Virus record (IMG/VR): IMGVR_UViG_3300045131_002362
Location: 22,709-86,708 of that record
Strand: one strand, 5' to 3'
DNA: 64,000 nucleotides
From: a virus
Positions within the stretch are counted from its first letter, which is position 1, and every line of letters begins with the position of its first letter. Below the pieces are notes generated by a model that saw nothing but the letters and a program-made list of their open reading frames with translations, searched no databases and was not told where the DNA came from. Positions 8,311 to 52,993 of this stretch are shown here, one piece after another. Both the position numbers and the translations under genes were made by a program.

Positions 8311-8311
8311 A

Positions 8312-8643
8312 TGGTGGAGGCGGGGGGAATTGAACCCCCGTCCGCCGATTGCTATACGTTGAAGCTACGCGCGTGTCCCGATTAGGTCGGGCAACCGAGA
8401 GCGACCCGGCAACAACTCCGAGCCTTCCACCATCCCGTTCCTTGGTCTACGGGCAACCGTCACGTTCCCTTTCGATGATTCGGTTCACCGCCGCTCAGGG
8501 TGCAGCGGGAACTATAGCGGCGATTAGGCCGCGATTTTCTCAGGCATGGCCTTTGAAGTTTTGCCTTGATTTTTACGTGGCCATCTAGGCTACCACGGCA
8601 CGCATCAACGTAATCGAAACCGGCGTCGAAACCTGACGCCCCC
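8312..8643 (-). ncRNA. ssrA: tmRNA
   Basis: 5' GGGGGCGTCAGGTTTCGAC pairs with 3' CGCCTCC-ACCA including the G3:U wobble (alanine identity); T-arm GGGGGTTCAATTCCCCC; internal tag frame ...GGC AAA ACT TCA AAG GCC ATG CCT GAG AAA ATC GCG GCC TAA. Confidence 0.92.
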
Positions 8644-9188: not shown

Positions 9189-9217
9189 TATATCCGAACG
9201 CGGGCCATTCCCGCGCC
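9186..9217 (-). promoter_or_regulatory. putative phage middle promoter, copy 1
   Basis: GGCGCGGGAA-N9-TTCGGATATAATG; matches copies at 12983 and 24912. Confidence 0.75.
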
Positions 9218-12982: not shown

Positions 12983-13014
12983 CATTATATCCGAATCCGC
13001 ATCGTTCACGCGCC
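12983..13014 (-). promoter_or_regulatory. putative phage middle promoter, copy 2
   Basis: GGCGCGTGAA-N9-TTCGGATATAATG. Confidence 0.75.
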
Positions 13015-24911: not shown

Positions 24912-24943
24912 CATTATATCCGAACACGATCGCTTCCCGCGCC
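24912..24943 (-). promoter_or_regulatory. putative phage middle promoter, copy 3
   Basis: GGCGCGGGAA-N9-TTCGGATATAATG. Confidence 0.75.
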
Positions 24944-26738: not shown

Positions 26739-27245
26739 CTAGGACGCACATTCCCGTTCGTGTTTCCGCAAAGCGTCGACGAGTGTGCGCTTCGCCAGCT
26801 CGTACTTGTGCTCGCCGCCCACCTCGTTCAGGAATGCCGCCTTGACCCTGCGCCGAAGCTCCTTCAGATTCGGCCTGTACCAGACGCCGCGATCCACATC
26901 CTCGAAGCGCTCGGCCTCGCGCTGCGCGATCCTGGCCAGCCTTCGTGCCAATGGCCGCAGCCCCGACAAGAACGCCTGCCAGTCGACCTCCTCGCAGGGC
27001 GAGTCGAACACGGCGAGCGTGAGCGCAGCGCCGGACGACTCGTCATCGATGCTCGTGCAGAAGCGCCGCGCCATCCTGCGCCGCTTGTCCTCGATGTTCA
27101 GCAGATCCCGCAGCGCAATCGTCCACGCGAGCCTTGCCCCGCGCCCGGCTGCCAGAAACTCGGCGATCGCGATCTGCTGCATCACCTCCGCAGAACTCAG
27201 GTTCGGGAACCTGTGCAACAACTGGTTGATGTGTCCCTTGTCCAT
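26739..27245 (-). CDS. hypothetical protein, possibly a transcription factor
   Basis: GAGGAGG RBS; helical and Arg-rich; function is inference. Confidence 0.5.
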   Translation of the reverse strand: MDKGHINQLLHRFPNLSSAEVMQQIAIAEFLAAGRGARLAWTIALRDLLNIEDKRRRMARRFCTSIDDESSGAALTLAVFDSPCEEVDWQAFLSGLRPLARRLARIAQREAERFEDVDRGVWYRPNLKELRRRVKAAFLNEVGGEHKYELAKRTLVDALRKHERECAS

Positions 27246-34674: not shown

Positions 34675-37631
34675 GCTTCCTCCTACAGTTTGCTGTCGAT
34701 GCTGTCCAGATCGCCGTTACAGATCGCCTCGATCAGCGGAATGACCCAGCTTTTCGTGTAGCGCTCCGTCGCCACCCTTATCTTCTCGGTGTCCTCTGAA
34801 CAGGGCATCGATTCGTCTCCCTTCAGAGAAAATCCGGCGTTCTTAAACAGAACAAGCTCGGTAAGCTTGCGCTTCGCCCGCGCCAGCGTCGCCGCCTCGC
34901 GCTTTCCTTGCACTCTCATGCTTCCTCCGTTCCCTGCTCGATGGTTTTGCCGCAATGGGCGCACGGCTTTGGCAGCTCCGGGTGGCCCGGATACATGAAG
35001 CCGCGAGACATCGGCCCGCCGCCTTTGCCGAACGACGCCGTGTACGCCTTCGCGCACCTCTTATGGACGAACGCGTCGGCGAACCGCTCGAAGCACATCC
35101 GCACCGCGATGATGGTTTTCATACTTGTTCCTTACACATTTTTGAGGCGCTCGTGCGCCGACCGGATCATGTCGTGCGCAACGTTACAGGCGTCCAGCAG
35201 AGCAATCTTGCGACGCTCGGCCTCCGCGACGAGATCGGCGGCGATCTTCTTCGCGGCCTGAAGCGCGTCGCACGCTTGCTTGTCCATCCGTTCCGCACTC
35301 GCCTTTGCGTCGGCGATGATCTGCGTCCGGATGGCCTCCGCTTCGCGGTAGTTCTTGGCGTAGCACTCGGCGGGAACGTCATCCATGATGGCGCGCTCCA
35401 GCGCCGGCAGCTCCGCAGTCAGCCACTCGCCGCAGTAGCTCATGTTGCGGTCGCCCAGCCTTGCCACGAACTTCCGCAGCATCGCAATCTCTTCCTGCTT
35501 GCTCCAGCTCATACGACCTCCCTAAAGGTTGTTGACGATTACGGTGTTCCGATAGTCCTTGTTGCGTTTGCCGTGCGGATGCCGGCGAAGCTCAGTTCCC
35601 CAAGCCGCGCTCTTCGCCTTACCCGAAAAGAGGCAGCGCAGCTCGTGCCCGTCCCACGACTCCGGCACCTTGCCGGCCGCGATGCTCATCACGATATCGG
35701 CCGCGATGTTGTCCGACAGCTCGCGCACAAAGTGCATCTGGTCTTGTGTGGTCATTTGCTCACCTCGATCTCTTCAACTTTGGCCGACCACGATTCGACC
35801 CATGCCGCCGTTGTCCCGGACAGCATACCCTCATCAGCGAGATGGTCTGCCGCTTCCAGCAGCAGCGGATGCAGATCCTGCACCAAAGCGCCGCCCGAAT
35901 ATTCCACATCGATCGTCAGTCGCAGTTTCATGACGCTCCTTTCGCCTTCTTGACAGCGATGCGTGCTAGTTCGGCCCCCTTGTCCATCGTTTCCAGATCG
36001 TCGGGGTCGAACTCGTAGAGCCAGAGGATCTCTTCCAGCGCCGCCAACATATCGGGTGCGGCGCGGATCAGCTCCGCGTTTCCTTCGATATCACAAGGCC
36101 CGATTCTCGCAACGTGCGATTCGTCTTTAACCGAAACAATGTGCGTGGTCGTTACGAACTCGCCTGGCGTCGTCCTTTTCTGGATCTTCCAAGGTCCGGC
36201 TGTGTGATTCACTTCGCCCCCTTTGCGCGCTTCTCGACCGCCGCGACGGCTTTGTTGTAGAACCTGGCGAAGCGGCGGGCCTGCGCCAAGCCAACAACCC
36301 TGCCGGTCTTGAGGTGGAAGTCAATTGCAATTGTCCCGTCAACGCAGCCCGCCACAGCATCTCTGAAGCGGTTGCTGCAAGTCGCGACCATTCCGGGACA
36401 ATACTCGGCACCGCTCTCGTAGTGACCATAGCAGGGCAGCCCGAGGGCCGCAATGTTGCCAAGCTCTTCGCTTCCGCCGCCGTCAACCCCGTTGAAGCTG
36501 CCGTTCACGATGCAGTTCTCAACGGTCTCATCTTCCGGCTGTCCCAAATCAACCTCGATCGCCTCGCGGTCGCACTCGGCGTAATTCAGATGCAGCGTCG
36601 TCCTGTCGCTCATACAACCTTCTATTCTGCCGCGTCGATCGCGGCGTTCATTTCCTTCTCCAGCTTGTTGAGCGAGGCGCGGGCCTCGCTACAGCGGGAT
36701 CGAACACACTCACGCACGTCTTCGATCGCCGCTGCCTTGAGGCGCATCGCGTTGTCGCGGATGAAGAGGGCCAGCTTCTCGTGGATATGCTGCTTGATGA
36801 AGGCGCGCTCGCCCTCGGTCGGCTTCTGAAAGCCGCGAACGCGGATGGCGGGCCACTCCGTGCCGTTCTCGTAGACGATGTTCATCTCGCCCATGTCGAC
36901 GCCGCGCAACGTGAACGTGCCGGGGGCCGGGTGCGGGTCGCGCTGGTCCGGTACATAGCCAGCGTGGTCAACACGCGTGCTCTGGTCGTGGTTCTCCTTG
37001 TCGCTGCGCAGCAGGTCGCACCAGTACGTGCGGCCGATGCTCGGCTTCTCCATGTCGCACGGACGCCACTGCGGAATGAGTCCGCCATAATTGCGCCAGC
37101 GGAATCCTCCGCAGCAGCCCTCGAAGTCGGGTCTCGGCCCGATCTGCCGGACACACCAAAGCGTCTCGACAACGCAGCCTTTCTTCGTCTCGAATGCGAT
37201 TTTCAGCTTCAGCATGACACTTCCTCCTCGATGTGGTAGCTCTCGCGCTCACGGCGCGGGATTGTGTGGTCTGCCTTGCGACGCTCCTCGCAACGGCCCT
37301 CGTGTTCGTGCAACTCTCGCACACTGTTCTCTGCCGACGCTCGGGTCGCGTCGGCCTGAATCGCCAGCCCGGTCTTGTCGTTCACGACATAGAAGCGTCC
37401 AGTGAACGCCCCGCCCGGCATGTCTGGATGTCTCTTGATCATTGTGATTTCTCCACATTGTATAGCGGCTTGCCTTGGTGTTCTCCGACGACAAGCGTGT
37501 ATTCTTCTGGAATTTCTAACTTTCCGAATCTCGTCACACACAGCCCTTCGAGGCTGAAATAACCGGACATCTCTTTGTCGCGACTGATCTTGATCTTCAC
37601 TTCAGACCATCCTTTTTGATTCCACGCGGAA

Positions 37632-38921
37632 TCAGTTGCCGTTCTTGTCGGTGAATTTCACGATCATCGTTGCGACATCGGTGCCGGAAGATTTGAAAGC
37701 GCCCGAGTCGACATCTTCGATCTCCACACTGTAACCGTCCGCGAGTTCGGAAAAGCATCGACGGTCACGATTGGGCCACATGATCGCGACCAGGATTCCT
37801 CCGGGCCTGAGAAAGCGCAGCGCGTGCTTCACGTGCCGGCAGTCTTGATTTTTGGAGAACGGAGGGTTCATCACGATTCTGTCGAACGTGCCGAGATCCG
37901 CAACCGTCATGTCAAGAAAGTCACCGGAAAACACGGAAAACTTTGTGTTGTCGATCTTCGCGGCCTCTCGGTCCGACAGCTCGACGCCGGTGGCCTCGCA
38001 GCCTTCTGGCAGCGCCCTCAGAAGCGCCCCGTCACCTGCGCTCGGCTCCAGTACACGATTGCCGATCGCAATCTCGGCAAGTTCCACGACATGCGCGGCG
38101 AGCTGGTCCGGCGTATAAAACGCCTGACGGTCTTTCTTCTCGTTTTCGAGATCCCCGGTCTCGATGTAGGCTGCCAACTTTTCGCGTGGATCGTCGGCGA
38201 ACTTGAAACACTGCCCCGACGTGTTCCACTTCCCACCCAAAACGGTCATGACGGCCTTGACCTTTTCGTACAGATCCCTTGCGAGCTGCTTTTTCGGCAG
38301 TCGGACAAAGGTTTCCGCGATCTCGCACTGGGAGACGGCTGTCCGCACAGGGTCGTCCAAAAGGGCAGGAGGCGGGGTTTGTTTCTGACGCTTCACGGTT
38401 TCCTCTTTCTTTTTCGGGATTGTCTCTGCGTCGATCCTCGCGAGATAGCGCGACGCGAGTATCTGGTTTGAGACCACATACACGTCGGCCTTCTTCGTTT
38501 CGTGAACAACGACCTTGAAATACACCTTGTCGTTGCTCACGACCAGCATGTTCTCCTCGCAAGCCTTCAGCACTGCTGCGCTCGGGACGACTCGAAATGA
38601 ACCGCACGGATAGTCGATCGTGACGAAATCCGAAACGATGAGCGAGCCGGCCTTGCTGTCGCCGTTGCCCGGCTTGAAAATGTCTTCCCATTTTTCAGGC
38701 CCGGGGAGAAGCGGCTCGCACAGATGGCCATAGTGGAACTTGGCCGACGGAGTGTGCAGCTTGGAAAGCAGCAGCTCCCTTCTTTCTGCGGGCGTCTCGA
38801 AGATATCGCCGTCTTCGCATTCCGTCCAGAGATCGCCCATGTCCTGTTCAAAAATCTTTGCGCGCTGGCCACGGTATGGTGCGCCGATGTTCACGAAGAT
38901 GCCTTCTTTGATGAGCTTCAT
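37632..38921 (-). CDS. amino (N6-adenine type) DNA methyltransferase with an extra N-terminal domain
   Basis: QAFYTP, VLEPSAGDG, GDFL, IVMNPPF, GGILVAIM. Confidence 0.88.
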   Translation of the reverse strand: MKLIKEGIFVNIGAPYRGQRAKIFEQDMGDLWTECEDGDIFETPAERRELLLSKLHTPSAKFHYGHLCEPLLPGPEKWEDIFKPGNGDSKAGSLIVSDFVTIDYPCGSFRVVPSAAVLKACEENMLVVSNDKVYFKVVVHETKKADVYVVSNQILASRYLARIDAETIPKKKEETVKRQKQTPPPALLDDPVRTAVSQCEIAETFVRLPKKQLARDLYEKVKAVMTVLGGKWNTSGQCFKFADDPREKLAAYIETGDLENEKKDRQAFYTPDQLAAHVVELAEIAIGNRVLEPSAGDGALLRALPEGCEATGVELSDREAAKIDNTKFSVFSGDFLDMTVADLGTFDRIVMNPPFSKNQDCRHVKHALRFLRPGGILVAIMWPNRDRRCFSELADGYSVEIEDVDSGAFKSSGTDVATMIVKFTDKNGN

Positions 38922-39900
38922 TCGTCGCCTTCGCTTTCAAAATCGGGCATCACAATCCCGCTTCCGGCCGGATCTTTTCTAAGTTCCAAGCCGCCCATGT
39001 CACAGTTCTGAATCTTCAGGGCGCATCCGCGCCCGTCCCAGTTGAAGATGGGCTCGGGCTTGCCGTCACCAATGATGCGCCGCATCTCACGCAGGATGGC
39101 CACAGACTCGCGCTTTACGCGCGCCGTCTTGACCTCGCCGTTGCACCAACCGACAGACAAGGCGCGCGCCCTGCGCTCCAGGCGCAGCAGCTTGCGACAC
39201 AGGCGCAGCGGATCGCGCTCTCGGCAGTTGGGCCAGATCGCGAGCAGATCACGTCCATGTCGCTCGATCTGCGCATTCATCTTCTCACGCTGTTTCGCGT
39301 TCACGTTTCCTCCTTTGCCTCTTCATTCACCTCTTTCAGGAATATGGATACAGCCGTCCGTTTGTTGTAGCCCAAGTACTTCCTGCGAAAGATTGCGTCG
39401 CCGATCTGCGCCTCGATAACAAGCCATCCGCTCGGCGGCGTCTTGATCGCAATGTCCTTTCGCGTAACCCTCATTTACGCACCTCCTTCACTTTCGGGCG
39501 CTCAATTACGCCGGCAAGATACAGCGCCTCCTCGTCAAAAGGCTGTGAGAGGTCGCGCCGCATAGCATCGAGCATGTCTACGCTCCAGTCTCTAACATTG
39601 TCGTACTTGTGACGCTGCGCCCTCATATGCGCGACCCGCTGTTCGGTCGTCATAATCACTTGCGAACCTCCTCATAGGCCGATACGGCCATTTCCAGTTC
39701 GCGAACGGCAGTCGACAGACGACAGGTAGGCCAGTCGCGAACGACATTCTTCGCCGCTCGGACAAGGATCTCCTCGGTTGACTTGCGTACGTTCTCGCGT
39801 CCACGTTTGGACTTTCGCAGCGCAGCCTTCTTCTCCTGCGCCCAATGGTACGTCGCCTGGTCTTCTTTGGACATCGTATCCAGAACACATTTCGGAATGC

Positions 39901-40347
39901 TCATTTCGCCTCCTCGATGAGTTCGCCGTAGTAGTGGCCCGGTCGCAGGTTCCAAACGTCCAGATAGTCGTTCACGACGAGCTTGCGGCAGTCCTCCGGA
40001 AGATCCTCGAAGCGGATGCGCTTCCCGAGATGGCACTTGCGGCCGATCGCCGGGGGCCAGTGCCACCCAGGTTTCTCGCCCATCGTGTCGCATGGCTGGA
40101 TCTTCGTACTGCCCCACATGCCGACGCCCTGCGGATGGAAGGGCTCTCCGCTCATGGCGCGATACGGGTACTCGCCGCCGCACGCCTTGACGCACGCAGC
40201 CCCGCTGAACACGACGGTGTAGCGGTCGGTGCTTCCACCAGTGTCGGGGTCTCCACCGTTATCGTAGCAGCGAATCCAACGCGGGATTCCGTTCGGCATC
40301 AGCGACACGAGGCGCTTGGCCAGCATCGCGGGACTTTGCTTCTTCAT
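39901..40347 (-). CDS. conserved-type hypothetical phage protein
   Basis: IRCYDNGG...DRYTVVF...HLGKRIRFEDLP. Confidence 0.7.
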   Translation of the reverse strand: MKKQSPAMLAKRLVSLMPNGIPRWIRCYDNGGDPDTGGSTDRYTVVFSGAACVKACGGEYPYRAMSGEPFHPQGVGMWGSTKIQPCDTMGEKPGWHWPPAIGRKCHLGKRIRFEDLPEDCRKLVVNDYLDVWNLRPGHYYGELIEEAK

Positions 40348-43110
40348 CTTGCGTTCTCCGGTTTGAGCATTCCGCCGCTCTGAAGCGACGCTTCCAGATC
40401 GACCAGATCCTGTATCGGAACAGCCGTGAGAAGGTGGGCGTAGCCTCTCTTCTCAAAAGCATTTCTGGCAGCCGCAGCATCTTTCTCGGCGACCAGAAAG
40501 TTGACCGTCGGCGGCGCCATGCCGTCACCGAACCTGATGCGACCTCCCGGTCCTGAACCACATGCGGGTTTGAAGTCGTTGTTCTTCATCGCGATCTTGT
40601 GCTCTACGCCGGCGGCGGTCAGAATGTCGCCGAAGAACTTCGCGTTCCGCTGGGCATAGTAGTCGTAGGGGCACACGCTATGGCATCCCGTCACGCTCGC
40701 AACGATAAGTTCGCTCATGCTTCCGGCTCCTTCCATTTGGGGTCGTTGAAAAGACAATACACCTTCGTATCGTTGGCGCAGAGGTCGACGAACAGATCTT
40801 CGAGCTTGAAGCTCACCTCGGCATCGTTCTCACGCATCCGCGCCGCGCCCTCGATCAGCGTCGGCCGGCACATGTCGCGATCCACCTCGATCGTGCCGCT
40901 GAATTCGCCGACTGTCTTCCAATCCGTTTGTGACGCGTGATCTATTATGGCCACGTCTTTGCACACGAATCTCATACGCACTCCTTCCACAATGCCTGAT
41001 CCAGAACCGGCTTGCCGTCGATCCACAATTCGCCGGGAGGCAGGTTCAACCACATGCCGTTATCCTGCGCTTTGCCGTACACGGGCGTCCACCGCTGCTC
41101 GCCATCGTGCCAGTAGCCGACTGCCGTCTTGTCCGGCCCGTAGATCGCGATGCGCTTGCCGGGGTTGTCCGTCTTGAGCTGTTCCGCCAGACCTTCCGCT
41201 GTGTACATTTTACACCCTGTATCCGTAGAAGCCCGTGCCGTCCCGCTTGCAGACGGCGCGTGCCAGATCGTCCATCGTACGTTTGCGCACACCCCTCGGC
41301 CGCAGCGCCTGGCCCATCTCATTCTGCCGCGTCACCTCGCGGGCCATGTTCATGAGCAGAACCTTGACGCACTCGGGGAAGTGGTCGCGGACGCAGCCGC
41401 TGATGGGCTGTCCGCTGCCGTCCCCGTAGTCCCTTATCGCCGCCTCGGCGAGCCTGCTGTGCTCTTTCGACGCCTTCGCGGCACGAGCAAAGTGCAACTG
41501 TGCGTTGTACAAATCCGTTCGCTCCAGAATCTTCTTCACGCTGCCTCCTTTAGATGTCCCCGACCCTGCTCAGCACGCGCTGAACATGGAAGGTGAAAAT
41601 CGCCATGTAGGCGTCAACGGCAGTCTCCATCGAGGGAAAGTGGAAGTTGTGCGAAACGCCAACGTCGTTCGCATCCGCGATCTCAATGTGAAAGTCGATC
41701 TTGCCGGCATACCAAACGACCAGCTTGAACGAGTCGGTCATTCGCGGCGCGCCCACCGTGATGAAGAGAAATCCCTTCCCATCGTCAAAGATCTGCGTCT
41801 CCCGCTTGTACTGCACCGCGACGTATTCTGCCACGGCTGTCTTGATCGCCGTGATTATCCCGAAATCTTTGTTCATGAGAAACCTCCCTCATCTGTCTCG
41901 ATGCAGTAGCCGCCGTCTGACGGCTTCGGCACGGATGCGAAAGCACCCTTCTTCAGATCACCGCGATGCCGCACCGTCTCGGTCCACACGGGTCCGCAGA
42001 TCTTGACGAACACGGCGATCCCATACCCGAACCCCTCGAAGCTGACGGTTCTCGCCTTCAACTTTGTGAACTTGACACCTGCCTGCGCCAGCCTCTCGGC
42101 ACAGTCCTTCTTGCACTCGTTTGTGGTCATTTCAATCCTCCGGAATGAAGAAGTCCTCGGGCTTTCCGTTCATCGTCACACCGTCTCTCCAAGTGAGCCC
42201 TATGCAGTGATCGTTCAATTCGCACTTGATGAGCCACTGATCGCATCCGTTCTTGTACGGCCTTCCGTTTTTATCCAACCAGTCGTGGACGACGAAGTAG
42301 GCTCTGTTTTTCCAACAGACACGCTTGCCTTCTACAACGGCAATTTTGATCTCTTGGAGCGTCATTTCAATCCTCCGGCATTAGCAGGGCGACGAACACG
42401 CAGATCTCATCGCGCAGCTCTTTTGCAGCCTTGCGGCCTTCCTGCTGTCGAACCAGCCGCAGGCTCTTGGCCCGCAGACGCCGGCCCTCGTCGCTCAACA
42501 GCCACGAGGACGGCGCGTTGGCGAAGCGCTGGCGTATCAGCTCGCTCGCTTTCACGAAACAGCCTCTTCGATCAGCGCCGAAACGATATCGAACGTCTCG
42601 CCCACAAAAGTGTTACGTGTGCGGTATCCTTCGTTCCCGACGTACTCGATCGCCGTGCCGTAAACGAGCAAACCCTGCCCGTAGTCGAGCTGATGCGGAT
42701 GAGCGCTTGTGATGTAAGCTGTGCCGATCAGCAGGGGCTTGTCGTTGCCTCTCGACAGCACACGACCAGTCCTGTCTCGGTTCACCACAACCTCACCGAC
42801 AAGAATGAATCCCTTCATCTTCCCTCCCTTGATTCCACGCGGAATCACATACGACTGCGATAACGTTTGTTGTCGACGAATTCTCGCGCCAGCGATCCGC
42901 ACTGGCAATACTGGTCGTCGTTCAGACTGTCCCCGAATCTGTAGTTCCGAATCAGCCGTTTTGCCAGCGCCTTCCAGATCCTCGCTTCGACCCGCCGCCA
43001 GAATTCGGGCTCGTGCCGACCAATTTCGATCAGGCAAGTCTGCCACACGGTCGTCTCGATGTACTGTCTCGTTCTCTCTTTCATCTTGCCTCCTTTGATT
43101 CCACGCGGAA

Positions 43111-43419
43111 TCACCTCACCCTGATGGACAGATAGTACTGCGTCTCGGTGTCCTCGATGTCCTGTTTCGAGAGGCCCCGATGCTGCGAAGGTAGCCACGT
43201 ACCGTCTGACGCGAAAGTCTGTTCTTGCCTTTGATGTGGGACGTGTCCCAACCGTGCTGCGCGAGCCCTTCGCAGGCGTCCTCAAACGCCTCGCGGGCCG
43301 TATCGCCCATGCCGGTCGCCACGTGCTTGAACTCGGTGAAGGCCGTGCCGCAGCCCTGGAAATACGACGGGCTCTCGAAGCCGTGATCGACGATCTGGTA
43401 GCCGCTGACCTTTTTTCAT
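43111..43419 (-). pseudogene. small gene with two apparent homopolymer frameshifts (or sequencing errors)
   Basis: ATG at 43419 is followed by A6 and is out of frame with the protein-like VSGYQIVDHGFESPSYFQGCG...; a second shift at a G4 run (~43175) is needed to reach ...TQYYLSIRVR ending at the palindrome TGA. Confidence 0.55.
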
Positions 43420-44092
43420 CGCTTGCTTCCTTTCAGCGTGACGTTCACGCCGTCCTCGATCATGAGCGCCAACTCCTGCGAGTTGGTACGGTCGCCCGGC
43501 AGCACCCGCAGCGTGTTGACACACTCCAATACCGCGAACTCGCGAGTACCCGTCTGCCATCCCTTGATGACCGCCACGACCACCTTTGCCTGAATCTTCA
43601 TGCCTTTGCCTTTTCCCGCGCCTCGCCCAGCGCGATTGTCTCGTTCCACATCTCGACCTCAAGCTCCGCTTCTTCGGCCAGCTCACGATACGGCTTCACG
43701 TTCCTGGAGCTGAGGCCCTCGTGCTCGATCCAGTACGTCTCCGCGTCGCGAGCCGTCTTTGCCCGGTTCTGCGCCATGCTGCGCTTTTCCCTCGACCACT
43801 CAAGATGCGTCATTTCAGTGCCCTCACTTCCCCGCTGCGGTTGTCGGTGAGCGTCTTGTCGCTGTACCGGATGAAGCCGTCATACTTCTCGCGGCACTTC
43901 TCCTCTTCAAACGAATACACGAACTCGCCGCAGGTCACTTCTTTCTTTCCTGCGTCGAAAGCATAGCCGATAGAGTCTCTCGCGTTCATGCTGTAAAGCC
44001 CGCCGGCAACGCGCATCGCGTCGCGGATTACGCTCGCCGGGATGTTCTTCGTTCTCTTGATGTTCATGTTGCCTCCGTGATTCCACGTGGAA

Positions 44093-44410
44093 TCAGTAGC
44101 GCTTCGTTACCTTCGGGCAGATCGACTTCAGCGCCGTGTAGATGTGCTCGTCATGCGAATAGCTGTACAGATATTGGCACACCCAGGCACAAAGTCGCGC
44201 GTCGAACATCATGTCGAAGCAGAAGCGCTTCTGAAGATCCTTGGTCCCCTCGCTGCGCTCGTGCTTGCCCGTCTCGTACTTCTCCACCAGCGCGGCCCAG
44301 CCGCCCTGGGTCTCTGCATAAGCGTCAATCGCCGCTTTCATGTAAGCGACGTGCTCATCTTTGATTTTCACGATTCCTCCTTCCCAAAGTTGCCTTTGCA
44401 TCCGCATCAC
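44093..44410 (-). CDS. hypothetical phage protein
   Basis: RFCFD...LYSYSHDEHIYTALK; stop codon lies within the palindrome; probable GTG start at VKIKDE. Confidence 0.7.
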   Translation of the reverse strand: MMRMQRQLWEGGIVKIKDEHVAYMKAAIDAYAETQGGWAALVEKYETGKHERSEGTKDLQKRFCFDMMFDARLCAWVCQYLYSYSHDEHIYTALKSICPKVTKRY

Positions 44411-45323
44411 GAGCGCAGGCGTGACAGAAAGCGACGTGCGCGGTTTTCTTTTCTCTCTTCAGAGCCTTTGCCAGCACTTTCTTTTCACTTCTGATTTTCA
44501 TGCCGCCTTTCAGGGCCGCAAAAGGGTGAGCCCGCGCTTCTCAGCGTCTTCCTTGGTCGTTATGATCATGCCCCACGACGTGAGCCATGCTAACACGTAG
44601 GGGTCGGGAACGATCGGATACGGGTTGTCGGTTCCGTCGTACCATTCGCCGTCGATGATAATTCCGCCGTTGAACCGTTGGCGGCCGTATCGCGGCCTCG
44701 CATCCGCGCTGCCCTGAATGATGCCTTTCGGAGGCCGGTTGCCCCAGTGATCCGCCGGGGCATACTTGCGCGCCTTCTCGCACTCCGCGACCGACCACGT
44801 TTCCTGCGGTGCGTGATGATACGTGTACTGCCTTTTCATGCCCGTCTCCTCGTGAGCGGTTTCCACACGACCGTCTTGTCGATGCGTCCGCTACCCTGAC
44901 CGTCGAAGTTCTGCGCGATCCAGGAGATGACGATCTCGCAGCCGGGATTCTCGCGGCGGTGCTGCGCGGCCCTGCGCATTATCGTCCTGACTCATATAGG
45001 TATGATTGTGTTCACAGCCCCGACGTGTTGTTCGGCGTGAGGCAGCCCTTGAAAGCGCTGTCGAAGGCGTTCATCACGGCATTCTTAACAGCGATGTCTA
45101 TTCCCACCATCCTTGCGCAAGGCCTGCACAGCGCCTGGTGCGCCTGATCGTAAGTCACTCCGTGGGCGATCATGATGCCGGCCGCGACGACCTCGGGCTT
45201 GAAAAGGTAGGCACTCCTTATCGCGTTCACGACAAGCTCTCTGGCCATCGTGTCCGAAAGCGTAATACAGCGCTCCTCTTGCGTTTTCGTCCTGTCTGCG
45301 AATGTCCTGTTCATATACTTCTC

Positions 45324-45734
45324 CTATCGATCCCGAAACAGCCGCTCGTGCCGCTCCATGATGTCGCCCACACTGCACACGCGCCAGCTCCCGTTGAAGC
45401 GGCATAGGGTCACGTCGTATGTGTCGCCCATGTTGACGTACTCCAAAGGCGGGCCGTCGCGCATGTCCACCTCGCCGGCATACTCGACGCCGTATCCGCC
45501 GATGATGTCGTTTGCCATCTGCATTTTCATCTCGGCGGGATTGCGATTGGCGCTGGCCGCATACTGCAAGCTCGACCTGAACATTTTTCTGTCGGTGGCG
45601 CAAATCTCCTCACGCTGGCTCCGGCTGTTTGTCTCCAGCACCTTGCGCAGAAGCTTGGCACGGTCCTTGTCGTGCTCCAGATCCCCGATTCTCATGAGCG
45701 TCTTTACGCTCGGCAGATTGTGTCTCAGTCTCAT
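45324..45734 (-). CDS. hypothetical phage protein
   Basis: GYGVEY...YVNMGDTYDVTL...SVGDIME; AAGGAG RBS. Confidence 0.7.
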   Translation of the reverse strand: MRLRHNLPSVKTLMRIGDLEHDKDRAKLLRKVLETNSRSQREEICATDRKMFRSSLQYAASANRNPAEMKMQMANDIIGGYGVEYAGEVDMRDGPPLEYVNMGDTYDVTLCRFNGSWRVCSVGDIMERHERLFRDR

Positions 45735-46071
45735 TTCGGCTCCTTCACCTTTCGCATCTCCTTCTCCACGACGCCGCAGCGCCAGCGATCCGAGTTCGGT
45801 GCGGTCTCGATGCCGAAGTGATACACCCCGGGCAACACGAAGTCCACGCAATTGAACCACTTCTGGCGCTCGCCGCGCGGCTGGGTCACGAAGGGCACGT
45901 CCACACTACCTACAACTCCGATCGCACCGACGGGCACAATGACGACGGGGCTACCGGCGTAATTCGAGCCGTACGCTTCCTGCGGTGCAAGCAGCTCCAC
46001 CTTGTCGCCAATCTTGAATTTGCTGGGCATATCGTCCTTTCTTGATTCCACGCGGAATCAGCGTTATGGTA

Positions 46072-46106
46072 TCCGGCCCGCAGACGGAGGTCCGCTGCGG
46101 GCCGGA
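46072..46106. other. strong intergenic hairpin
   Basis: TCCGGCCCGCAG...CTGCGGGCCGGA, a 12-bp perfect stem. Confidence 0.7.
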
Positions 46107-47000
46107 ACGTAGGGTTTTGGCCTACATGTGCATAACGCCTCCTTTCGTAGAATACTGCTACACCTTAAATCCTTGCGAGCGTCGTGGCCTTGCCGATGCC
46201 ACCGCACTTCTTGAGCGCATCAGCGATACGCTTTGCATCCTCATCCGGCACGCCGTCCTCTGCAAACAGGCCGTTCGCCCGGCGCACGAGCCACTTGCCG
46301 GTCGTGCCGCGTAGGCCGCGAAAGACCTCCAGGCTGTTCATCGACACGCGGCCGATCACCGTGCCCTCGCCCAGCTCCAGCGTGACGCCGCCCGCCTTAA
46401 GCGCCTTCTTCATCGCAGTCATGTGCTCCGCATCCATCACCTGAGTCAAAACAATTCGCAGCATAAGCCCCTCCTTTGATTCCGCGTGGAATCAGCTCGC
46501 TGAGTACAGCTACATCGCCGAGTATAGCTACACCGGCAGTTTGTCCAGCCAGTTCGAGAACCGCGACCACAGCTCAGGCCGCCGCTCGATGTTCTTCTCC
46601 AGATCCGCCCGCGTCATGCCAGCGGCCACAAGATCCAAGAACGCCTTGTTCGCGTCCGCAATCTTACGCTGCTCCTGCCAATAGAGCTGGAGCTGGTCTC
46701 GCCCTTTGCGCGGAACACTGCTCACTTGGCACCCCAGCGCCGCGTCTGACGCCGCGTATCGCAGCGCCCTTCCCACCACCCCGCCAAGATCACAGCGAGC
46801 GCCAGCGACGCCGCCACAACCATCAGGATCATCACGATCGCGGTGAGCGCCGCCGCTGTCTGGTTGTCCGCCCCGACGCTGCCAAGCCACGCGTTCAGTG
46901 CGTTGCCGGCCTTCATCATAAGTTCGTTCATGCTGCCCTCCCTTGATTCCACGCGGAATCACCTCGCGGGATACCGCTACACCGTCAGATACGACTCCCA

Positions 47001-47132
47001 CTACTTCACAATCTTCTGGATGCGTCCACCAAAGCGGCGAACGATCGACTTCGCCACCTCCAGAGTGCTCGCCCAAAACACGCCATCGTTGACGGCACAC
47101 TTCGTCACCACATACGCTGCCCACTCTTTCAT
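47001..47132 (-). CDS. 43-aa hypothetical protein (below the ORF track cutoff)
   Basis: GGGAGG RBS; MKEWAAYVVTKCAVNDGVFWASTLEVAKSIVRRFGGRIQKIVK. Confidence 0.6.
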   Translation of the reverse strand: MKEWAAYVVTKCAVNDGVFWASTLEVAKSIVRRFGGRIQKIVK

Positions 47133-48765
47133 GATGCCTCCCGTTTTGCGCATTACACTGATACACCCGAAACCGGAAATACTGTAGCGCCCGGCCGTGC
47201 TCCTGTTCGCAGAATACTGCTACAGGTCTCCCCGCAGGGACTATGGCCGTGCCGGACGCGCTTATCGCGATCGCGATTTCAGGGCGCTGGTCGTCACGCC
47301 CCTTCTCTTCGGCGGCACTGCCGCATAAGCGGTCACTTTCGCCGGCTCTTTCTCATCGTAAAGCCAATCACCCACATCCTCCCACACGGTGCTCACACCT
47401 CCTTTTCTGCTAAAACCGCGAGTTCTCAGCGTCAGCATCCCGCTCACGCCACACCCTCACCATCGGCTCGAATGCCGCCAGCGCATCCACAATCGTCTTC
47501 GCCTTCTCCTCCACGAGATGATCCGCAATCTCGCTGTCGCTCCACGCCTCCACGATCACATCCCAGCCGCCCTCGGCATAATGAGCGTTAGCGTGCTTCT
47601 TGACCTCTTCCACCAGATAAGGTATCAGACCCATAACACTCCGTTCTGATTCCACGCGGAATCACTGCTACACCGTCGAATACGACTCCGACCGTCAACT
47701 CCTACGAACACCACCCGAGCAAAGCGCACCGCACAAACGATGCACGCACTCGCTGCACCATTCACACTCCTCATGCGAATCGTATCCCTGCCCCATTGTC
47801 CACCCCGCCGGACAACTGCTGCCCGCCAATCCGTTCTCCAGATAACCCGCCATCGCTACCACCCTTCTGATTCCACGAGGAATCACCTCGCCGCAATATG
47901 CAGCCTGGCAAGATACGGATTTACCAGAGCGTCATAAACCCGCCGGGCGCAACGCACAACATCCCCAATGCTGCCACGCGAAACCTCCACACCATGACGC
48001 CCACGGCAACGCGGATCATACCCGCACGGGCACGTCAACCAATACCCGCTGCTGTCCTTCAACACCCGAAACCCGCCCCCGACAGCCGTGATGCTGCCCA
48101 CCTTGCTGCCCACAATCGCCTTCTTGCGCTGCCTCGCGTTCATACCATTCTCCATTCTGATTCCACGCGGAATCGCTGCCACCGCTGAATATAGCTCCTG
48201 TTGAATACGCTGCCACCCTATCCCCTCACACAATACAGCTATGCTGCCCGGCTATGCTGCCGCCTTTGCTGCCCAAGGATAGCCCGGTGGGAGGGTTTTT
48301 GGGCCGAAACCGTCAAAAATGACCCAAAACGGCTATTTCAGAACTCGACTGTGCCCGACAGCCGATCCCCGGCACGCCAGCACACACGGGCCAGGCGGCG
48401 CAGGGCCGCGTTGGGCCTGCCATGGCACGGGTTGGCCTCCAGGGCGCGACCGGCGCTATAGGCGAGGGTGGCGAGGGCGGAAATGGCTGCTTTCATGGCT
48501 GTTTCTCCGATTGTGTACGTTTGTGTGGGTACAAGCGATTTTCGCGAGGGGAGAAAATCCGCTTCTGAAAAACACGCCTGTCTGAAAATGCACGTATGTG
48601 TACACTATAGGCGTGCGAAAAATGGGACTGCCGTACCACTGGCACACGCCAGGCCGGCGAAAATTGAGCGGAACGGCCTTTAAAGCGCCGTGTGGGATCG
48701 GTTCGGCTTGATTCCGCGTGGAATCAGCGGGAAGGGGCCGTATACGCGCGGGCGCGCGTAAAGGG

Positions 48766-48796
48766 AAGGGGAGCGCCCTTGTGCGGCGCTCCCCTT
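48766..48796 (-). terminator. hairpin immediately downstream of 48805-49488
   Basis: AAGGGGAGCGCC-N7-GGCGCTCCCCTT. Confidence 0.6.
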
Positions 48797-48804
48797 GTGG
48801 CGTC

Positions 48805-49488
48805 TTAGCAACCGGTGCTTTCCGGTGCCGGGCCACGCATTGCCGACAAAGCAGCAATCACGGCTTTTTCGGCATTGTGAAGCGCGTTACGAAGGGCAAC
48901 AAGTCCGTCGGCGTCTAAACTGGACAAGTCCAGTGTGGACAAGCCGTCGATAATCGATTGCGGGACGCACTTACGAACGGTCGGCTCGGTCGGCTCGGTC
49001 GGCTCGGTCGGCTCGGTCGGCTCGGTCGGCTCGGTCGGCTCGGTCGGCTCGGTCGGCTCGGTCGGCTCGGTCGGCTCGGTCGGCTCGGTCGCTTTTGGGG
49101 CGGTCAGTGCGGCAACAAGCGCGGCCGTTTTGGCGTCAGCACTAGCTTTCAATTCCCGGTCAGCGCGTGAAGCATCTTTATGGGCGGCCGCTTTCTCGAT
49201 CATAACGGCGTACACTTCATTAACGCCCTTGGCATTCTTACCATCTTTATCACCCTTTGCTGCAGTCAACCCAGCACTGTAAACGATTGTCGCGCAGCCG
49301 AGATTAGCGCCAACGATAGAGCGTAAGGCGTCGCCAAAGGCGCGTTGTGTCAAACCCGCTTTTCCCGCTTCTACGCAGCAAACGGCGATAGCCATATACC
49401 GATTTTTTGTGGAAGCGATAAGGCCAGCGATAGCCGATTGTGTGAACTCAAAAGGCTTGATTGTGGCATTGATTGTCTCATTACTCAT
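48805..49488 (-). CDS. first gene of the leftward arm; two domains joined by a (TEP)n linker
   Basis: AAGGA RBS; palindrome directly upstream; about 12 TEP units. Confidence 0.8.
   Translation of the reverse strand: MSNETINATIKPFEFTQSAIAGLIASTKNRYMAIAVCCVEAGKAGLTQRAFGDALRSIVGANLGCATIVYSAGLTAAKGDKDGKNAKGVNEVYAVMIEKAAAHKDASRADRELKASADAKTAALVAALTAPKATEPTEPTEPTEPTEPTEPTEPTEPTEPTEPTEPTEPTVRKCVPQSIIDGLSTLDLSSLDADGLVALRNALHNAEKAVIAALSAMRGPAPESTGC
48978..49091. repeat. 9-bp tandem repeat CGGTCGGCT, about 12.7 copies
   Basis: Perfect tandem array, in frame in 48805-49488. Confidence 0.97.
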
Positions 49489-49596
49489 TGTGTGTTCCTT
49501 CATTGTGTGATTCCACGCGGAATCATGGGTTATCCCGGCAATATACCGGAAAGCGCGTCAAGCATGGCGCGCTTTCCGAAACATTCCCAACTTGTA

Positions 49597-49627
49597 ACCA
49601 TACGGGCGCAAGTCGCGCCCGTATGGT
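49597..49627. terminator. 13-bp perfect inverted repeat in the divergent intergenic region
   Basis: ACCATACGGGCGC-AAGTC-GCGCCCGTATGGT followed by a pyrimidine run on the + strand. Confidence 0.55.
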
Positions 49628-50089
49628 GTCTTCTTTTCTTCTACTCCCAAAACGGTCTAAGGTTTCACATGTGCCGTGATCGCCCGGTGTTCACATGTGG
49701 CGCTTTTGGGGTCTCTCGTTGGTCTCACGCCAACGGCTCTATTGAGAAAGAACATTGATTCCGCGTGGAATCACCGGCAAGCTTGCTAGTGGTCTAGCTC
49801 CCTTGCCATGCCATAAGTATACACAATGTGGAAAGATAGCACAACTCCGATTTTGCTGCTTGAAGGGGGTACGCCAGGGGTCTGGGTGCCCGCTCAGATA
49901 AATTCGGCCATTTTGTAAAATTGGGATTTTGGAAAACTGAGATTTTCGGGCCGCGTATCCGGAAACTCAAAGTAGTCGTGCTCGACGAAAGTTGCCTGTG
50001 TTGACACATGCGGCGGAAAAGCAATATACTACGCGCGAGGAAAGAAGCGGTATTCCGCGAGAGGAGTCGTGTTCGACGGGAGGTGTCGT

Positions 50090-50842
50090 ATGGGATGGAT
50101 CGGGATAGAGTGTTCGGTGGAGGCATGGGAGCTGCGGCGGTGGGCAGATCATGTGGGGCGTTCGGGTGGTGCGCGTGTGGCGGATCTGCTGGAGAGGTGT
50201 GCGAGGCTGGTGGCTGGCGAGACGGTGGGGGTGGCTGGAGCGGACAGGATGCTGGAGATTGAGAGCAGGGCTGCGGCGGCTGTGGCGCGGATGCACGCGG
50301 AAGCGTCGGCGAAAGCATCGGCGATTGTGGGCCGGCTGATGGGGGAGGGTGCGAATCCTGTGGACGTGATGAAGGCTGCGGGGATGGACGGGTGGAGGGC
50401 GGGGAGTGCAGCGGGAGGTAAGAATGGTGGCGTTAATGCGAGGAGGCGCAAGTACCCGAGGGGGCATGCGGCGCAGGGCGTGACGGCTGAGAGGGGCGAG
50501 GCGGCGCTGAGTGTGGAATCCACGATTGCTCGGGACCGGCGGTATGGGGAGAGTTGGGCCGGATGGGCTGGAGTCGAGATGCGCAAGGACGGCTTCAAGA
50601 TGGCGCGTGTGGCGCGCGGGCTCGATATGGATGTGACAGAGGCGTGGCGGCATGTGAGTGGATGGGCGAAGCACTGGCGTCGTGAGGCGCTGCACGGTCG
50701 GGCGTTCCCGGGGCCGCAGGCGGGGTGGTGCGAGAAGTTGAAGGAGGCGCGCGACAGGGCGATGAACGTGGGTGTGAAGGGACGGCGCCCGGTGAACAAC
50801 GGGAGCGGCGACTTCGGACAAGACAGGGAGACAGAGACATGA
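50090..50842 (+). CDS. Arg/Gly/Trp-rich hypothetical protein, probably DNA-binding
   Basis: GGGAGG RBS; AGGKNGG..ARRRK basic patch; first gene of the rightward arm. Confidence 0.6.
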   Translation: MGWIGIECSVEAWELRRWADHVGRSGGARVADLLERCARLVAGETVGVAGADRMLEIESRAAAAVARMHAEASAKASAIVGRLMGEGANPVDVMKAAGMDGWRAGSAAGGKNGGVNARRRKYPRGHAAQGVTAERGEAALSVESTIARDRRYGESWAGWAGVEMRKDGFKMARVARGLDMDVTEAWRHVSGWAKHWRREALHGRAFPGPQAGWCEKLKEARDRAMNVGVKGRRPVNNGSGDFGQDRETET

Positions 50843-51588
50843 GCGAGACGGATGTGAAAGAGGAGCCGGCGGCATGCGAGGTGCTTCCGCCCGAGAACAG
50901 AGCGGCGGTAGCAACCGTGACCCAGCAACCTGATCTGCCTGAGCTGCCGAAAGGGGCGATGGCGGTGGGCGACATACGGTTCGGTATTACGTGCACGGAT
51001 GAGCCGATAGGCACGCGACACTGGCTGGCTGATTCTTCGGGGTGCGGCGACCTCATCATGGCGCTTCCGTCCTCGGTACTCATCGCTGGGCGGTCGAAGG
51101 AGGCCGGCGGTGTAGCTGTGGACATGGGGATGTTTTTGGACAGCATCATCGAAGGCGTGGGGAAGTTCACTGCGATGCAGGGGATCGCGGAAGTCTCGTC
51201 GCTTCCCGTGTGGGCAGTCAACCGGCTGTTCGGCACATTCCCGGTGCTGATGGACGTGTACCACGAGGCGATGGACCAGGCCGTACTGCTGGTAGAGGCG
51301 GCAAGTATGAAGGCGGCGATCGGCATGCAGGTGCAGAACGTCCGCAAGATGCGCAAGACGAAGGTGGGAGCGCCCGGCATCGCGATCTCGGCCAGCGGCA
51401 AGGTGGTGGAGACGCCCGGAGAGAAGACGGAGGAGAATAGCGAGGAGACGCTCGACAAGCACATTCCTCCTGACGCCACGCTGTCGAAGCTGATCCTCAC
51501 GTCGCGGATGAAGAGCCGGTACAAGGACGAGGGCGGCGTACGTCAGGCGATCCAGATCAATATCAGTGGCGCGGAGGCACGGCTATGA
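50839..51588 (+). CDS. probable terminase small subunit
   Basis: HTH-like segment followed by KAAIG...KHIPPDATLSKLILTSRMKSRYKD, a TerS-like C-terminus; upstream of TerL. Confidence 0.6.
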   Translation: MSETDVKEEPAACEVLPPENRAAVATVTQQPDLPELPKGAMAVGDIRFGITCTDEPIGTRHWLADSSGCGDLIMALPSSVLIAGRSKEAGGVAVDMGMFLDSIIEGVGKFTAMQGIAEVSSLPVWAVNRLFGTFPVLMDVYHEAMDQAVLLVEAASMKAAIGMQVQNVRKMRKTKVGAPGIAISASGKVVETPGEKTEENSEETLDKHIPPDATLSKLILTSRMKSRYKDEGGVRQAIQINISGAEARL

Positions 51589-51773
51589 TCGGGTTGTTGC
51601 GGGAGATCCCCGCGCTGGTATGGTACGCGATCCTGTTCGCCTGCGCCTGGGTATGGCGGGAGGTGCATGGCCGTCACGAGGAGACGGTTGTGCGAAGGGG
51701 ACGATTGGGGGAGCCACCTGTCGTGTACCGCGTCAATCTGCGGACGGGCCGGAGCAGAAGGGTCAGGTGAGCT

Positions 51774-52139
51774 GTGGGCAAGTGGTCATGGAACGCGAAT
51801 ACGGCGAGGCGCGTGAACGGGTTCGGCAATCCGGTCGACCGTGCGCCGGCCGTGCGCGATAACGACGGCCGTCTCGTTCCCGAGTGGCGTAGGCGCGCGA
51901 TCCTACCTCCGGATCTACGGGTTGGAGCGGACGATCCGGAAGACCCTCGTCTGCATCCCGAGAACTTTCCGCCGGCCCGCATGTGGGCGCACTACTTTGA
52001 GGGCGCGCGAGATCCGAGACGGTGCGCTAACCTCGACAGGGCGATTGCCGACGGGCTCTGCGTGGCCCTCGGAGCGGTTGCCGGCGTGTACACGCCCGCG
52101 CAGATCCTCGACCAGGTATACGGAAGGAGACCGAGATGA
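51774..52139 (+). CDS. hypothetical protein
   Basis: ORF track; stop overlaps the start of 52136-52387. Confidence 0.5.
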   Translation: MGKWSWNANTARRVNGFGNPVDRAPAVRDNDGRLVPEWRRRAILPPDLRVGADDPEDPRLHPENFPPARMWAHYFEGARDPRRCANLDRAIADGLCVALGAVAGVYTPAQILDQVYGRRPR

Positions 52140-52993
52140 ACCCTCTGTCACAGGCGCTTGACGACGAAATCTTCGAGCGGAGGCTCCGCGCCAACACGGA
52201 GTTGTCTCCGGAGGACAAGGCCCGCAGGCTCTCAAAGCTGGAGAGCGAGGCGTGCCGGGACAGGGTGCGCGCAGAGCTGGACTTCGGCCAGCGGTTCGAC
52301 GTTCTGGAATATGCCGCCGACATCCCGCTGATACCGGCCTGTGGCAGCACACTTCCGTCCGCACTCGCCATGCACACGCGCAAGTAAACAGTACGTATAG
52401 GGCTCTCGGACGGTAGTCCCTCGTAATCCCATTGTGATGGCCTGCATCGGAGGCTTGCGCGAGGCCGCAAAATGCGGGCACAATCCGCAACAGAATCTAG
52501 TGAAGTCGATAAATACGGCTTGGCTGCCATCGGTGACGTTCTTTCGGAATACCGAAAGATCGACCGTAAACTTCGTTTACTGTTCGCTCTTGGTTCTTGA
52601 AGGAACACGCTTCACCGATGGCGGGACCGTGGCTGGACTATATTGGGCACATCTCCCCAGCCGCCTCTCCAAATCTAACATATTTTGGAACGAAAAGCGA
52701 AGAGGTTTTGGATTACAGTTTTGTAACGATCCACAAATGAGTCAGAATCAAGGTTTTATGACTCTTTGGTCGGAAAACCGTATGGGGAAATTTCCCTTGG
52801 AGGTCGATTTTTCAATACGTGAGCCTCGGCTAACTTCAAAAGTGCCTCTTTTTGAACAACTTACGGCTTTTTGAGCCTGTTTTGAACATTACAGTGCTGT
52901 AATGTTCGATTTTCGACGAAATAGGCGTTTTCGTAGAATATTCCCCCATTGACACTTGACCCAACATGCTTTTTCTGAAATCATTACGGCGAA

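Follow-up and report, generated by a model that had tools for sequence, protein, structure and literature searches.

A start-associated 18-bp palindrome in the putative early genes of an uncultured freshwater phage: a candidate operator site

Start-locked palindromes of early genes have been described in a few actinobacteriophage clusters and form a class without established function. Microbacterium phages of Cluster EG (Hyperion, Squash, OneinaGillian) are reported to carry 8–10 copies of an 18-bp start-associated inverted repeat, which sits within small gaps between genes, 14–22 bp upstream of start codons; the cluster description gives one shared consensus and reports the function as unknown (Jacobs-Sera et al. 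2020, PMC7302621). In Cluster O mycobacteriophages a 17-bp dyad, TGTTCGG-N3-CCGAACA, is present in more than 30 copies genome-wide, about a third of them inside genes, and according to the authors has no close association with translation starts (Cresawn et al. 2015, PMC4351075). The 13-bp asymmetric start-associated sequence (SAS) of Cluster K mycobacteriophages occupies the position of the ribosome binding site, and an inverted repeat with imperfect 17-mer arms and a variable spacer, the extended SAS (ESAS), lies just upstream; the function of the SAS is reported as unknown, with binding of a factor being considered (Pope et al. 2011, PMC3203893). Here, we analyzed the palindrome TGATTCC-N4-GGAATCA of an uncultured freshwater phage. 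It is located in a window of 64,000 nucleotides, comprising bases 22709–86708 of the 86,708-bp virus record IMGVR_UViG_3300045131_002362 with direct terminal repeats. Positions refer to this window unless given as genome positions.

The inverted repeat of Cluster EG is the closest published analogue. As reported for the EG phages, all copies lie at the promoter-proximal end of a leftward non-structural arm and nowhere else, and the EG layout, a lytic-type phage with short direct terminal repeats, is similar to that found here (Jacobs-Sera et al. 2020, PMC7302621). The freshwater phage carries 13 copies, 11 of them linked to a start codon at a distance of 10–19 nt, within the first 12 kb of an arm which begins at about 49800. 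Geometry and sequence differ: the EG repeat has 8-bp arms and a 2-bp centre, whereas the present one has 7-bp arms and a 4-bp centre. Furthermore, the hosts of the EG phages are Actinobacteria, whereas the present phage comes from freshwater.

A search of the 64-kb window revealed 12 exact copies as compared to 0 expected from 100 dinucleotide shuffles; a 13th copy at 48158–48175 has one mismatch, its + strand ending in G. Scanning of the whole record yielded the same 13 sites, all within 37617–49773, and the reversed pattern used as a control gave no match. The initial annotation had listed 13 copies at these positions and none outside this interval, and both statements were borne out. Two look-alikes with two mismatches each, at 34275 and 40284, both lie within coding sequence and were left out of the count. 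An unbiased scan for 6+6-bp palindromes identified the 18-mer as the sole multi-copy palindrome of the genome outside the terminal repeats. Isolated 7-mer half-sites were not enriched (4 in 64 kb vs. 6.7 expected); therefore, the element is present solely in its full 18-bp form. Besides it, the 6+6-bp scan gave a single repeated palindrome, GAACGG-N4-CCGTTC, which was found twice in each direct terminal repeat and four times in all, at 63752 and 63905 (genome positions 86460 and 86613) and at genome positions 32 and 185.

The arms are nearly invariant, as had been noticed before, with 1 change in 182 positions. On the + strand the core reads ACGC in eight copies, GCGT in three, ACGT in one and ACGA in one, which are the four cores named by the initial annotation. 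Among the 91 stem pairs neither a wobble of the G·U type nor a compensatory variant was found, and the single arm variant (copy 4) results in C·A, i.e. a broken pair, on the mRNA strand. The centre always has the form N-CG-N with an invariant, self-complementary CG, and when both strands are taken, 25 of the 26 half-sites have a purine at position 8. The element can therefore be written as the degenerate perfect palindrome TGATTCC-R-CG-Y-GGAATCA. The centres of its half-sites are separated by 11 bp, close to one turn of the helix, a spacing comparable to that of dimeric helix-turn-helix operators. In most copies homology breaks off abruptly where the 18-mer ends; between copies 7 and 12 it covers 26 nt, made up of the palindrome and the following Shine-Dalgarno (SD) sequence.

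Eleven of the 13 copies stand directly 5′ of an SD sequence and a start codon on the minus strand, as claimed by the initial annotation. The purine-rich SD sequence follows at 0–6 nt, and the distance from palindrome to start codon is 10–19 nt with a median of 12 nt. The two SD-less copies read ACGC on the gene strand. One of them, copy 1 (49756–49773), is located about 36 nt downstream of a TATACT box (49816–49821), is followed by a T-rich run and appeared terminator-like in the scan; the other, copy 3 (48709–48726), lies about 35 nt after the hairpin and T-run which end gene 1. Copy 2 (49508–49525, gene-strand core GCGT) precedes the SD sequence GAAGGAA and the ATG at 49488 (19 nt) and marks the 5′ edge of RNA cover; a −10-like TATATT (49540–49545, minus strand) is found 14 nt upstream of it, with a predicted start at about 49533. 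Copy 4 (48158–48175), the sole variant, has C for T at its first gene-strand base and is followed by an ATG at 48143 (14 nt). Copy 8 (46477–46494; ATG at 46464, 12 nt) is the only SD-linked copy with the core orientation ACGC, copy 9 (46043–46060, GCGT; ATG at 46030, 12 nt) lies 12 nt after a GC-rich hairpin, and copy 11 (43096–43113, GCGT) precedes an ATG at 43084 (11 nt).

At four sites (37634, 42847, 44095, 47885) the leading TGA of the palindrome is the stop codon of the preceding open reading frame (ORF), as judged from ORF ends. It terminates ORF 47883–48143 at copy 5 (47868–47885, TCGT; ATG at 47853, 14 nt), ORF 44093–44410 at copy 10 (44078–44095, fully symmetric ACGT; ATG at 44067, 10 nt), ORF 42845–43084 at copy 12 (42830–42847, GCGT; ATG at 42818, 11 nt) and the gene of a 429-aa methyltransferase (37632–38921) at copy 13 (37617–37634, GCGT; GTG at 37600, 16 nt). 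The initial annotation had named these four cases and, as a probable fifth, position 43113 at copy 11; this case is uncertain, the ORF upstream having no coding signal in any frame. An in-frame GTG inside the palindrome was considered and rejected: in only three of eight GCGT copies does the GTG share the frame of the true start, as expected by chance.

A second motif, (G/C/A)TGTAGCnnTAyyC, had 8 matches in the window vs. 2.5 expected. Six of them are clustered on the gene strand within 46150–47673, at 46150, 46502, 46520, 46969, 47212 and 47660. This motif is located 0–7 nt upstream of a palindrome in three cases, among them copy 6 (47647–47664, GCGT; ATG at 47634, 12 nt), which it abuts, and copy 7 (46944–46961, GCGT; ATG at 46931, 12 nt), where it ends 7 nt upstream. 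On the + strand the core of the motif constitutes the −10 box of TTGACA-18-TATACT (50001–50030), a near-consensus rightward promoter; it is therefore read as a −10-like box.

The stretch was contained in freshwater and lake metagenomes and in two metatranscriptome runs, the latter probably from the sample in which the phage was found. Assembled contigs rather than reads from two RNA runs (X7, X8), which represent one sample and are not independent, and from two DNA runs (X9, X10) were aligned to 36500–51500; the results given here cover 32 of the 180 contig pieces and 20 of the 71 loose ends. RNA-library contigs spanned palindrome copies 3–10, i.e. eight copies (X7: 43966–44487, 45909–47161, 47281–47822 and 48109–49007; X8: 45782–46294, 46291–46572 and 47449–48010). 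Transcription therefore passes through the element, which acts neither as a strong terminator nor as a site of complete processing. The highest RNA depth was that over the first gene of the arm, with 41.6 and 18.9 in the two runs at 49025–49525, and was 0 and 0.23 at 49526–50026. RNA contigs ended in Illumina adapter at 49522 (X7) and 49535 (X8), corresponding to the upstream edge of copy 2 (49525–49508) and to 5–18 nt after TATATT (49545–49540). The gap in RNA cover was used only jointly with these adapter-ended contigs and with the DNA runs, which continue across 49526–50026; taken together, these data are consistent with a 5′ end of the RNA at the upstream boundary of copy 2.

Judging by gene order and position, the palindrome-bearing genes are probably early genes. 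We tentatively regard the 18-mer as the operator of a phage-encoded, probably dimeric, sequence-specific DNA-binding protein regulating these genes. The initial annotation had put a dimeric operator first among three options, and it is still the best reading, on grounds other than the one given there. It is favoured because 13 sites are found in this block where none are expected, the arms are nearly invariant, wobble variants are absent and symmetry extends through the centre, and because the half-sites are spaced by about one helical turn. Additionally, copy 2 follows TATATT at the RNA boundary, three copies follow the −10-like second motif, and the SD-less copies 1 and 3 are found at promoter- or terminator-like positions where there is no ribosome site to act on, and the presumed use of host RNA polymerase also agrees with this reading. 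We infer that a protein binds the element, that its target is DNA and not RNA, that the phage encodes it and that repression is its effect.

Such a protein would recognise TGATTCC-R-CG-Y-GGAATCA and thereby mark one temporal class of genes, covering about the first 12 kb of the leftward arm. Each site occupies the one position that leaves room for an invariant 18-mer in such a packed operon, namely between a stop codon or local −10-like box and the next SD sequence, and would lie at about +1 to +30 of locally started transcripts. Once bound, the protein may prevent host RNA polymerase from initiating or elongating at many points simultaneously. The outcome would be a coordinated shut-off of early genes or another kind of timing, with a separate four-copy promoter class driving the replication genes. 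An additional effect at the RNA level is conceivable, as the transcribed copy may fold into a 7-bp hairpin beside the SD sequence.

The operator reading is also favoured by analogy, since the palindromes of EG phages behave like DNA half-sites. Phinky (MT639641.1) and Squash (MH153813.1) belong to one genus and were both isolated on M. foliorum NRRL B-24224. Squash contains 11 sites of GATCAACC-NN-GGTTGATC, a sequence with no copy in Phinky, which instead carries GATTTCCC-NN-GGGAAATC at the same junctions. Phinky has nine sites in all, and each site of either phage abuts an SD sequence. The palindromes differed at all five orthologous junctions compared: 24–39 of 45 flanking positions were identical as compared to 8–11 of 16 arm positions, and the arms differed at the same positions. 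Four of the nine Phinky sites are hybrids of a GATTCACC half and a GATTTCCC half, with an RNA hairpin energy of 0 to −0.1 kcal/mol. A genome-wide switch of palindrome in one host combined with independently varying half-sites fits a phage-encoded DNA-binding dimer and not a structural RNA or a host factor. This pattern is evidence on the analogue, not on the phage of the window.

Several observations weigh against the operator. The mixed core GCGT/ACGC was found in 11 of 12 R-CG-Y sites vs. 49% expected (p=0.003), and of the nine SD-linked copies with this asymmetric core, eight have GCGT on the gene strand (binomial p=0.039). Neither bias is explained by a symmetric dimer; common descent or a role of the RNA would account for them. 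Both core orientations do occur, as pointed out in the initial annotation, but the orientation independence which it had taken as an argument for an operator was overstated, and this argument is weaker than it seemed. Furthermore, the spacing of the palindrome to the SD sequence (0–6 nt) is tighter than to any promoter-like box (0–46 nt), which is what a function in RNA or translation predicts. Protein family scans comprised 88 distinct proteins against Pfam and 30 protein queries against PHROGs, and no helix-turn-helix, repressor or other regulator family was found among them. The proteins encoded at 48805–49488, 50090–50842 and 26739–27245 had been proposed as candidate binders; no DNA-binding family was found for them. 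In the ESM Atlas the 227-aa product of the first gene matched only viral hypothetical clusters and an 86-aa Cys-rich protein matched nothing. The analogy itself is weakened, as no protein homology was detectable between the freshwater phage and the right arm of Phinky and the terminases are about 28% identical. Finally, the repeat is reported to be kept across EG relatives (Jacobs-Sera et al. 2020, PMC7302621), whereas for the present one the early region of a single genome was analysed.

The foremost alternative, which we consider possible but doubtful, is a role of the transcribed element. A hairpin 5′ of the SD sequence would shield the downstream cistron from decay that depends on the 5′ end, either as a 5′-terminal or as a post-cleavage structure which keeps the SD sequence unpaired, or it would serve as the operator of a sequence-specific translational repressor which blocks binding of the 30S subunit to early mRNAs. 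Precedents exist for both: 5′-terminal stem-loops stabilise mRNAs of E. coli, and the translational operator of phage T4 gp43 is a hairpin adjoining its SD sequence. The transcribed palindrome was predicted to form a hairpin with a 7-bp stem and a 4-nt loop at −7.6 kcal/mol, and in 10 of the 13 native contexts its mean pair probability exceeded 0.9. Its tight coupling to SD sequences, its presence in RNA contigs across copies 3–10, the location of copy 2, no more than about 10 nt from where the RNA of the deepest-covered gene appears to have its 5′ end, and the biased core orientation all agree with such a role. An invariant sequence, however, is needless for a pure structure, and the 91 pairs showed no wobble or compensatory change, the sole variant even breaking a pair. 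The loops belong to neither of the stable types GNRA and UNCG, and only their self-complementary centre is conserved; copy 8 was predicted not to fold in its native context (p=0.01), two copies lack an SD sequence, and the four Phinky hybrid sites cannot fold as RNA. Rfam covariance models gave no match at E≤1 over 36500–53000. The palindromes also did not behave as intrinsic terminators, since only copy 1 passed the scan, one of 13 copies has a T-run and RNA contigs run through copies 3–10. This alternative corresponds to the RNA hairpin listed as the third option in the initial annotation; transcription, predicted folding and the lock to the SD sequence speak for it.

The DNA operator and an RNA role are not mutually exclusive. 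One phage protein might read the DNA duplex at early promoters and gene junctions for transcriptional shut-off while the 5′-proximal transcript hairpin would set cistron stability and ribosome access; this two-level switch appears rather unlikely to us. The same estimate applies to it jointly with a wider proposal, namely that unrelated phages invented such a switch repeatedly and that co-evolution of site and protein would give each lineage a private early-gene address, as the change of palindrome between Phinky and Squash suggests. If this were true, co-infecting relatives would be isolated from each other's regulators.

It is improbable that the palindrome is a functionless promoter or ribosome-binding-site linker, homogenised by gene conversion and kept as stop codon plus spacer. 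Both core biases, i.e. the mixed core of the R-CG-Y sites and the one orientation at SD-linked copies, are what common descent predicts, and the second motif together with shared SD strings indicates that the intergenic regions of the block are interrelated. Gene conversion alone is insufficient, however, to explain why, in most copies, homology is lost abruptly beyond the 18-mer; moreover, the palindrome exists only as a whole, and the same layout evolved independently in unrelated phages.

Even less credit is given to a host-protein site, for instance of a nucleoid protein or a global regulator, which the phage would use to time its early genes. Protein scans identified no phage regulator, and early genes would be read by unmodified host machinery, both of which agree with this idea, but the palindromes of Phinky and Squash differ although both phages were isolated on a single host strain. 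The exact 18-mer was found in 185,579 species genomes only as 29 single copies; no contig contained several, and at least 10 of the copies lie inside conserved coding sequence, in two contig groups with near-identical flanks. These single chance matches therefore give no sign of a host operator or of motif-bearing kin, and the host may be absent from this collection. A likeness to parS or other host operators was dropped, as the species-genome search for the 18-mer did not support it. GANTC, the site of CcrM/GcrA, is present in each arm, but the genome contains 276 such sites vs. about 314 expected, evenly spread, and a role of GANTC was rejected. A hairpin promoter of the N4 type or another promoter for a phage RNA polymerase was rejected as well: no RNA polymerase family was found among the 88 proteins, and the site is symmetric.

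The DNA runs X9 and X10 contained mosaic relatives, with 37–47% of contigs running on into unlike sequence. The only joint reported in the four runs, 47200 to 47242 (X9), deletes a copy of the second motif and not a palindrome. None of the 12 DNA-run loose ends among the 20 of 71 given was located within 20 nt of a palindrome; the 10 distinct places were 37885, 38973, 41877, 42147, 42166, 42200, 42215, 43445, 44930 and 50168. No paralogy was found among the palindrome-flanked genes. Hence, these data provide no support for the cassette model, although contigs could miss rare events. A recombination site, whether site-specific or a homology patch, for gain, loss or shuffling of single-gene modules in the manner of attC or promoter-early stem-loop (PeSL) elements, which was the second option of the initial annotation, is thus most improbable, despite the cassette-like order of stop codon, palindrome, SD sequence and gene at 13 sites among small ORFan genes, the 26 nt common to copies 7 and 12 and the mosaic relatives: neither the joint nor the loose ends fall at a palindrome, Pfam scans of the 88 proteins identified no family of integrases or recombinases (the only recombination-type matches being RecA and a 5′-3′ exonuclease), the flanked genes are not paralogues and about 27 of about 40 gene junctions in the block have no palindrome.

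The genome context was derived from coding-potential scoring. Structural genes on the + strand extend from about 50.7 kb of the window through the end of the record and resume at its start; among them are a small-terminase-like gene, the terminase (52994–54352) and the portal (54790–56424). A single long minus-strand arm starts at about 49.8 kb. Its promoter-proximal block (37439–49503, minus strand) consists of about 40 small ORFs without known families except for the methyltransferase, and is followed by a replication module with methyltransferase, 5′-3′ exonuclease, DNA polymerase, RecA, clamp-loader-like ATPase, primase-helicase and SNF2 helicase. The first gene of the arm (48805–49488) encodes about 12 tandem Pro-Thr-Glu repeats between two domains without assigned family; these repeats (48990–49080, minus strand) are encoded by the 9-nt DNA repeat CCGACCGAG. 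Within the replication arm, a tRNA-Gln(UUG) gene and a transfer-messenger RNA gene lie 1 nt apart at 8237–8643 on the minus strand (tag peptide AAIVPAAP, ARAGORN), adjoining a nucleotidyltransferase gene (7662–8225).

A promoter scan yielded eight promoter-like sites, none of which falls at a palindrome. A second promoter-like class, GGCGCGGGAA-N9-TTCGGATATAAT, comprises four minus-strand copies (9186–9217, 12983–13014 and 24912–24943; genome 20705–20736), each upstream of an SD sequence and a replication-gene block. It has a perfect −10 box and a GC-rich box where the −35 box would be; in one copy the third G of GGG is replaced by T. No exact match of this pattern was found in IMG/VR. The phage presumably uses host RNA polymerase, because no RNA polymerase was found among the 88 proteins and sigma70-like boxes are present; apparently, it does so with at least two promoter classes.

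Further signals were observed around the palindromes. A degenerate motif family (GTGTAGCnGTATTC, GGAGTCGTATyyGACGG, GCGAGG) is interleaved with them at 46150–48240 and found again at 50020–50070, where the family recurs on the + strand directly downstream of TTGACA-18-TATACT. In one lake population (run X9) 41 nt (47201–47241) with one copy of the second motif are missing. The region 46001–48000, which contains palindromes 5–8 and most copies of the second motif, has a GC skew of −0.26, much stronger than that of its neighbours, and almost no AT skew. In the leader of the leftward arm, a strong intrinsic-terminator-like hairpin with a 13-bp stem and a T-run is directed rightward (49597–49637, + strand); it has no + strand gene upstream, is not covered by RNA contigs and possibly belongs to a small antisense RNA or a bidirectional terminator.

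The search for relatives gave the following results. The terminase has many metagenomic relatives at 60–88% identity, one of them (P0010) on an 87-kb contig (87,235 bp); the other close terminases on long contigs are P0006 (39 kb), P0002 (26.6 kb), P0026 and P0028. Alignment of terminases from IMG/VR and JGI metagenomes gave matches mostly at ≤42% identity among those listed, and two short contigs from it (L088, L089) do not reach the early region. The exact 18-mer had only two single chance matches in IMG/VR. The terminase, the terminase P0002 and the methyltransferase retrieved nothing close from that database, and the DNA polymerase retrieved one relative (L007/G001) in the replication module only, with neither the motif nor a repeated palindrome. 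P0011 had no match in the species genomes. INPHARED phages contained no near match; the nearest terminases, those of Synechococcus phages, were 35% identical and the nearest DNA polymerases about 24–29%.

Comparison with further systems places the element more closely. Stoperators of Cluster A phages and the conserved inverted repeats of phiC31 are numerous repressor sites in short early intergenic regions through which one protein silences an arm; stoperators are asymmetric and oriented with transcription, and these phages are temperate with a known repressor. The mechanism proposed here would be alike, but the arms of the present element are symmetric with a bias only in the 4-nt core (eight of nine), and neither a repressor nor an integrase was found among the proteins scanned. 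Integron attC sites are imperfect inverted repeats of about 57–141 bp with extrahelical bases and an integron integrase nearby, whereas the freshwater phage has an 18-bp perfect palindrome and no integrase among the proteins scanned. PeSL elements of T4-type phages were reportedly described by Arbiol in 2010. They are reported to consist of a full sigma70 promoter and a terminator-like stem of variable sequence, and indels between close relatives map to them (Comeau 2014, PMC4122927). The likeness is that modules are repeated between small early ORFan genes and that a −10-like motif and a stem-loop recur together; here, however, the stem is invariant and located after the −10-like box and before the SD sequence. 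As to indels, one joint and 12 listed DNA-run loose ends were available from contigs, and none was at a palindrome.

Like the Cluster O repeat, the palindrome combines invariant 7-bp arms with a variable centre and is densest in the leftward non-structural arm, the function being reported as unknown for Cluster O; unlike that repeat, its 13 copies occupy one 12-kb block and 11 of them are linked to starts (Cresawn et al. 2015, PMC4351075). With the Cluster K SAS it shares a short conserved sequence locked to the translation starts of a subset of genes, but it is a perfect short palindrome with the SD sequence outside (Pope et al. 2011, PMC3203893). The initial annotation had not recognised the element as a SAS, a stoperator, a PeSL element or an attC site, and it differs from each of them in the features given above. 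The palindrome belongs to the start-associated short palindromic repeats of phage non-structural arms, a class which is known but unexplained. New in this case is environmental RNA evidence that the element is transcribed and that one copy lies at an RNA 5′ boundary. The palindrome switch of the EG phages and their non-folding hybrid sites offer a route to the binding factor, with about 46 Squashvirus-like genomes at hand and with Phinky gene 79, annotated as a helix-turn-helix protein and adjacent to the primase, as an obvious candidate; if the factor were found, the shut-off of early genes would be explained in several phage groups and compact orthogonal pairs of operator and regulator would become available. 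That the EG layout recurs in an uncultured phage from freshwater which is unrelated to them suggests that such addressing of one temporal gene class is widespread and convergent.

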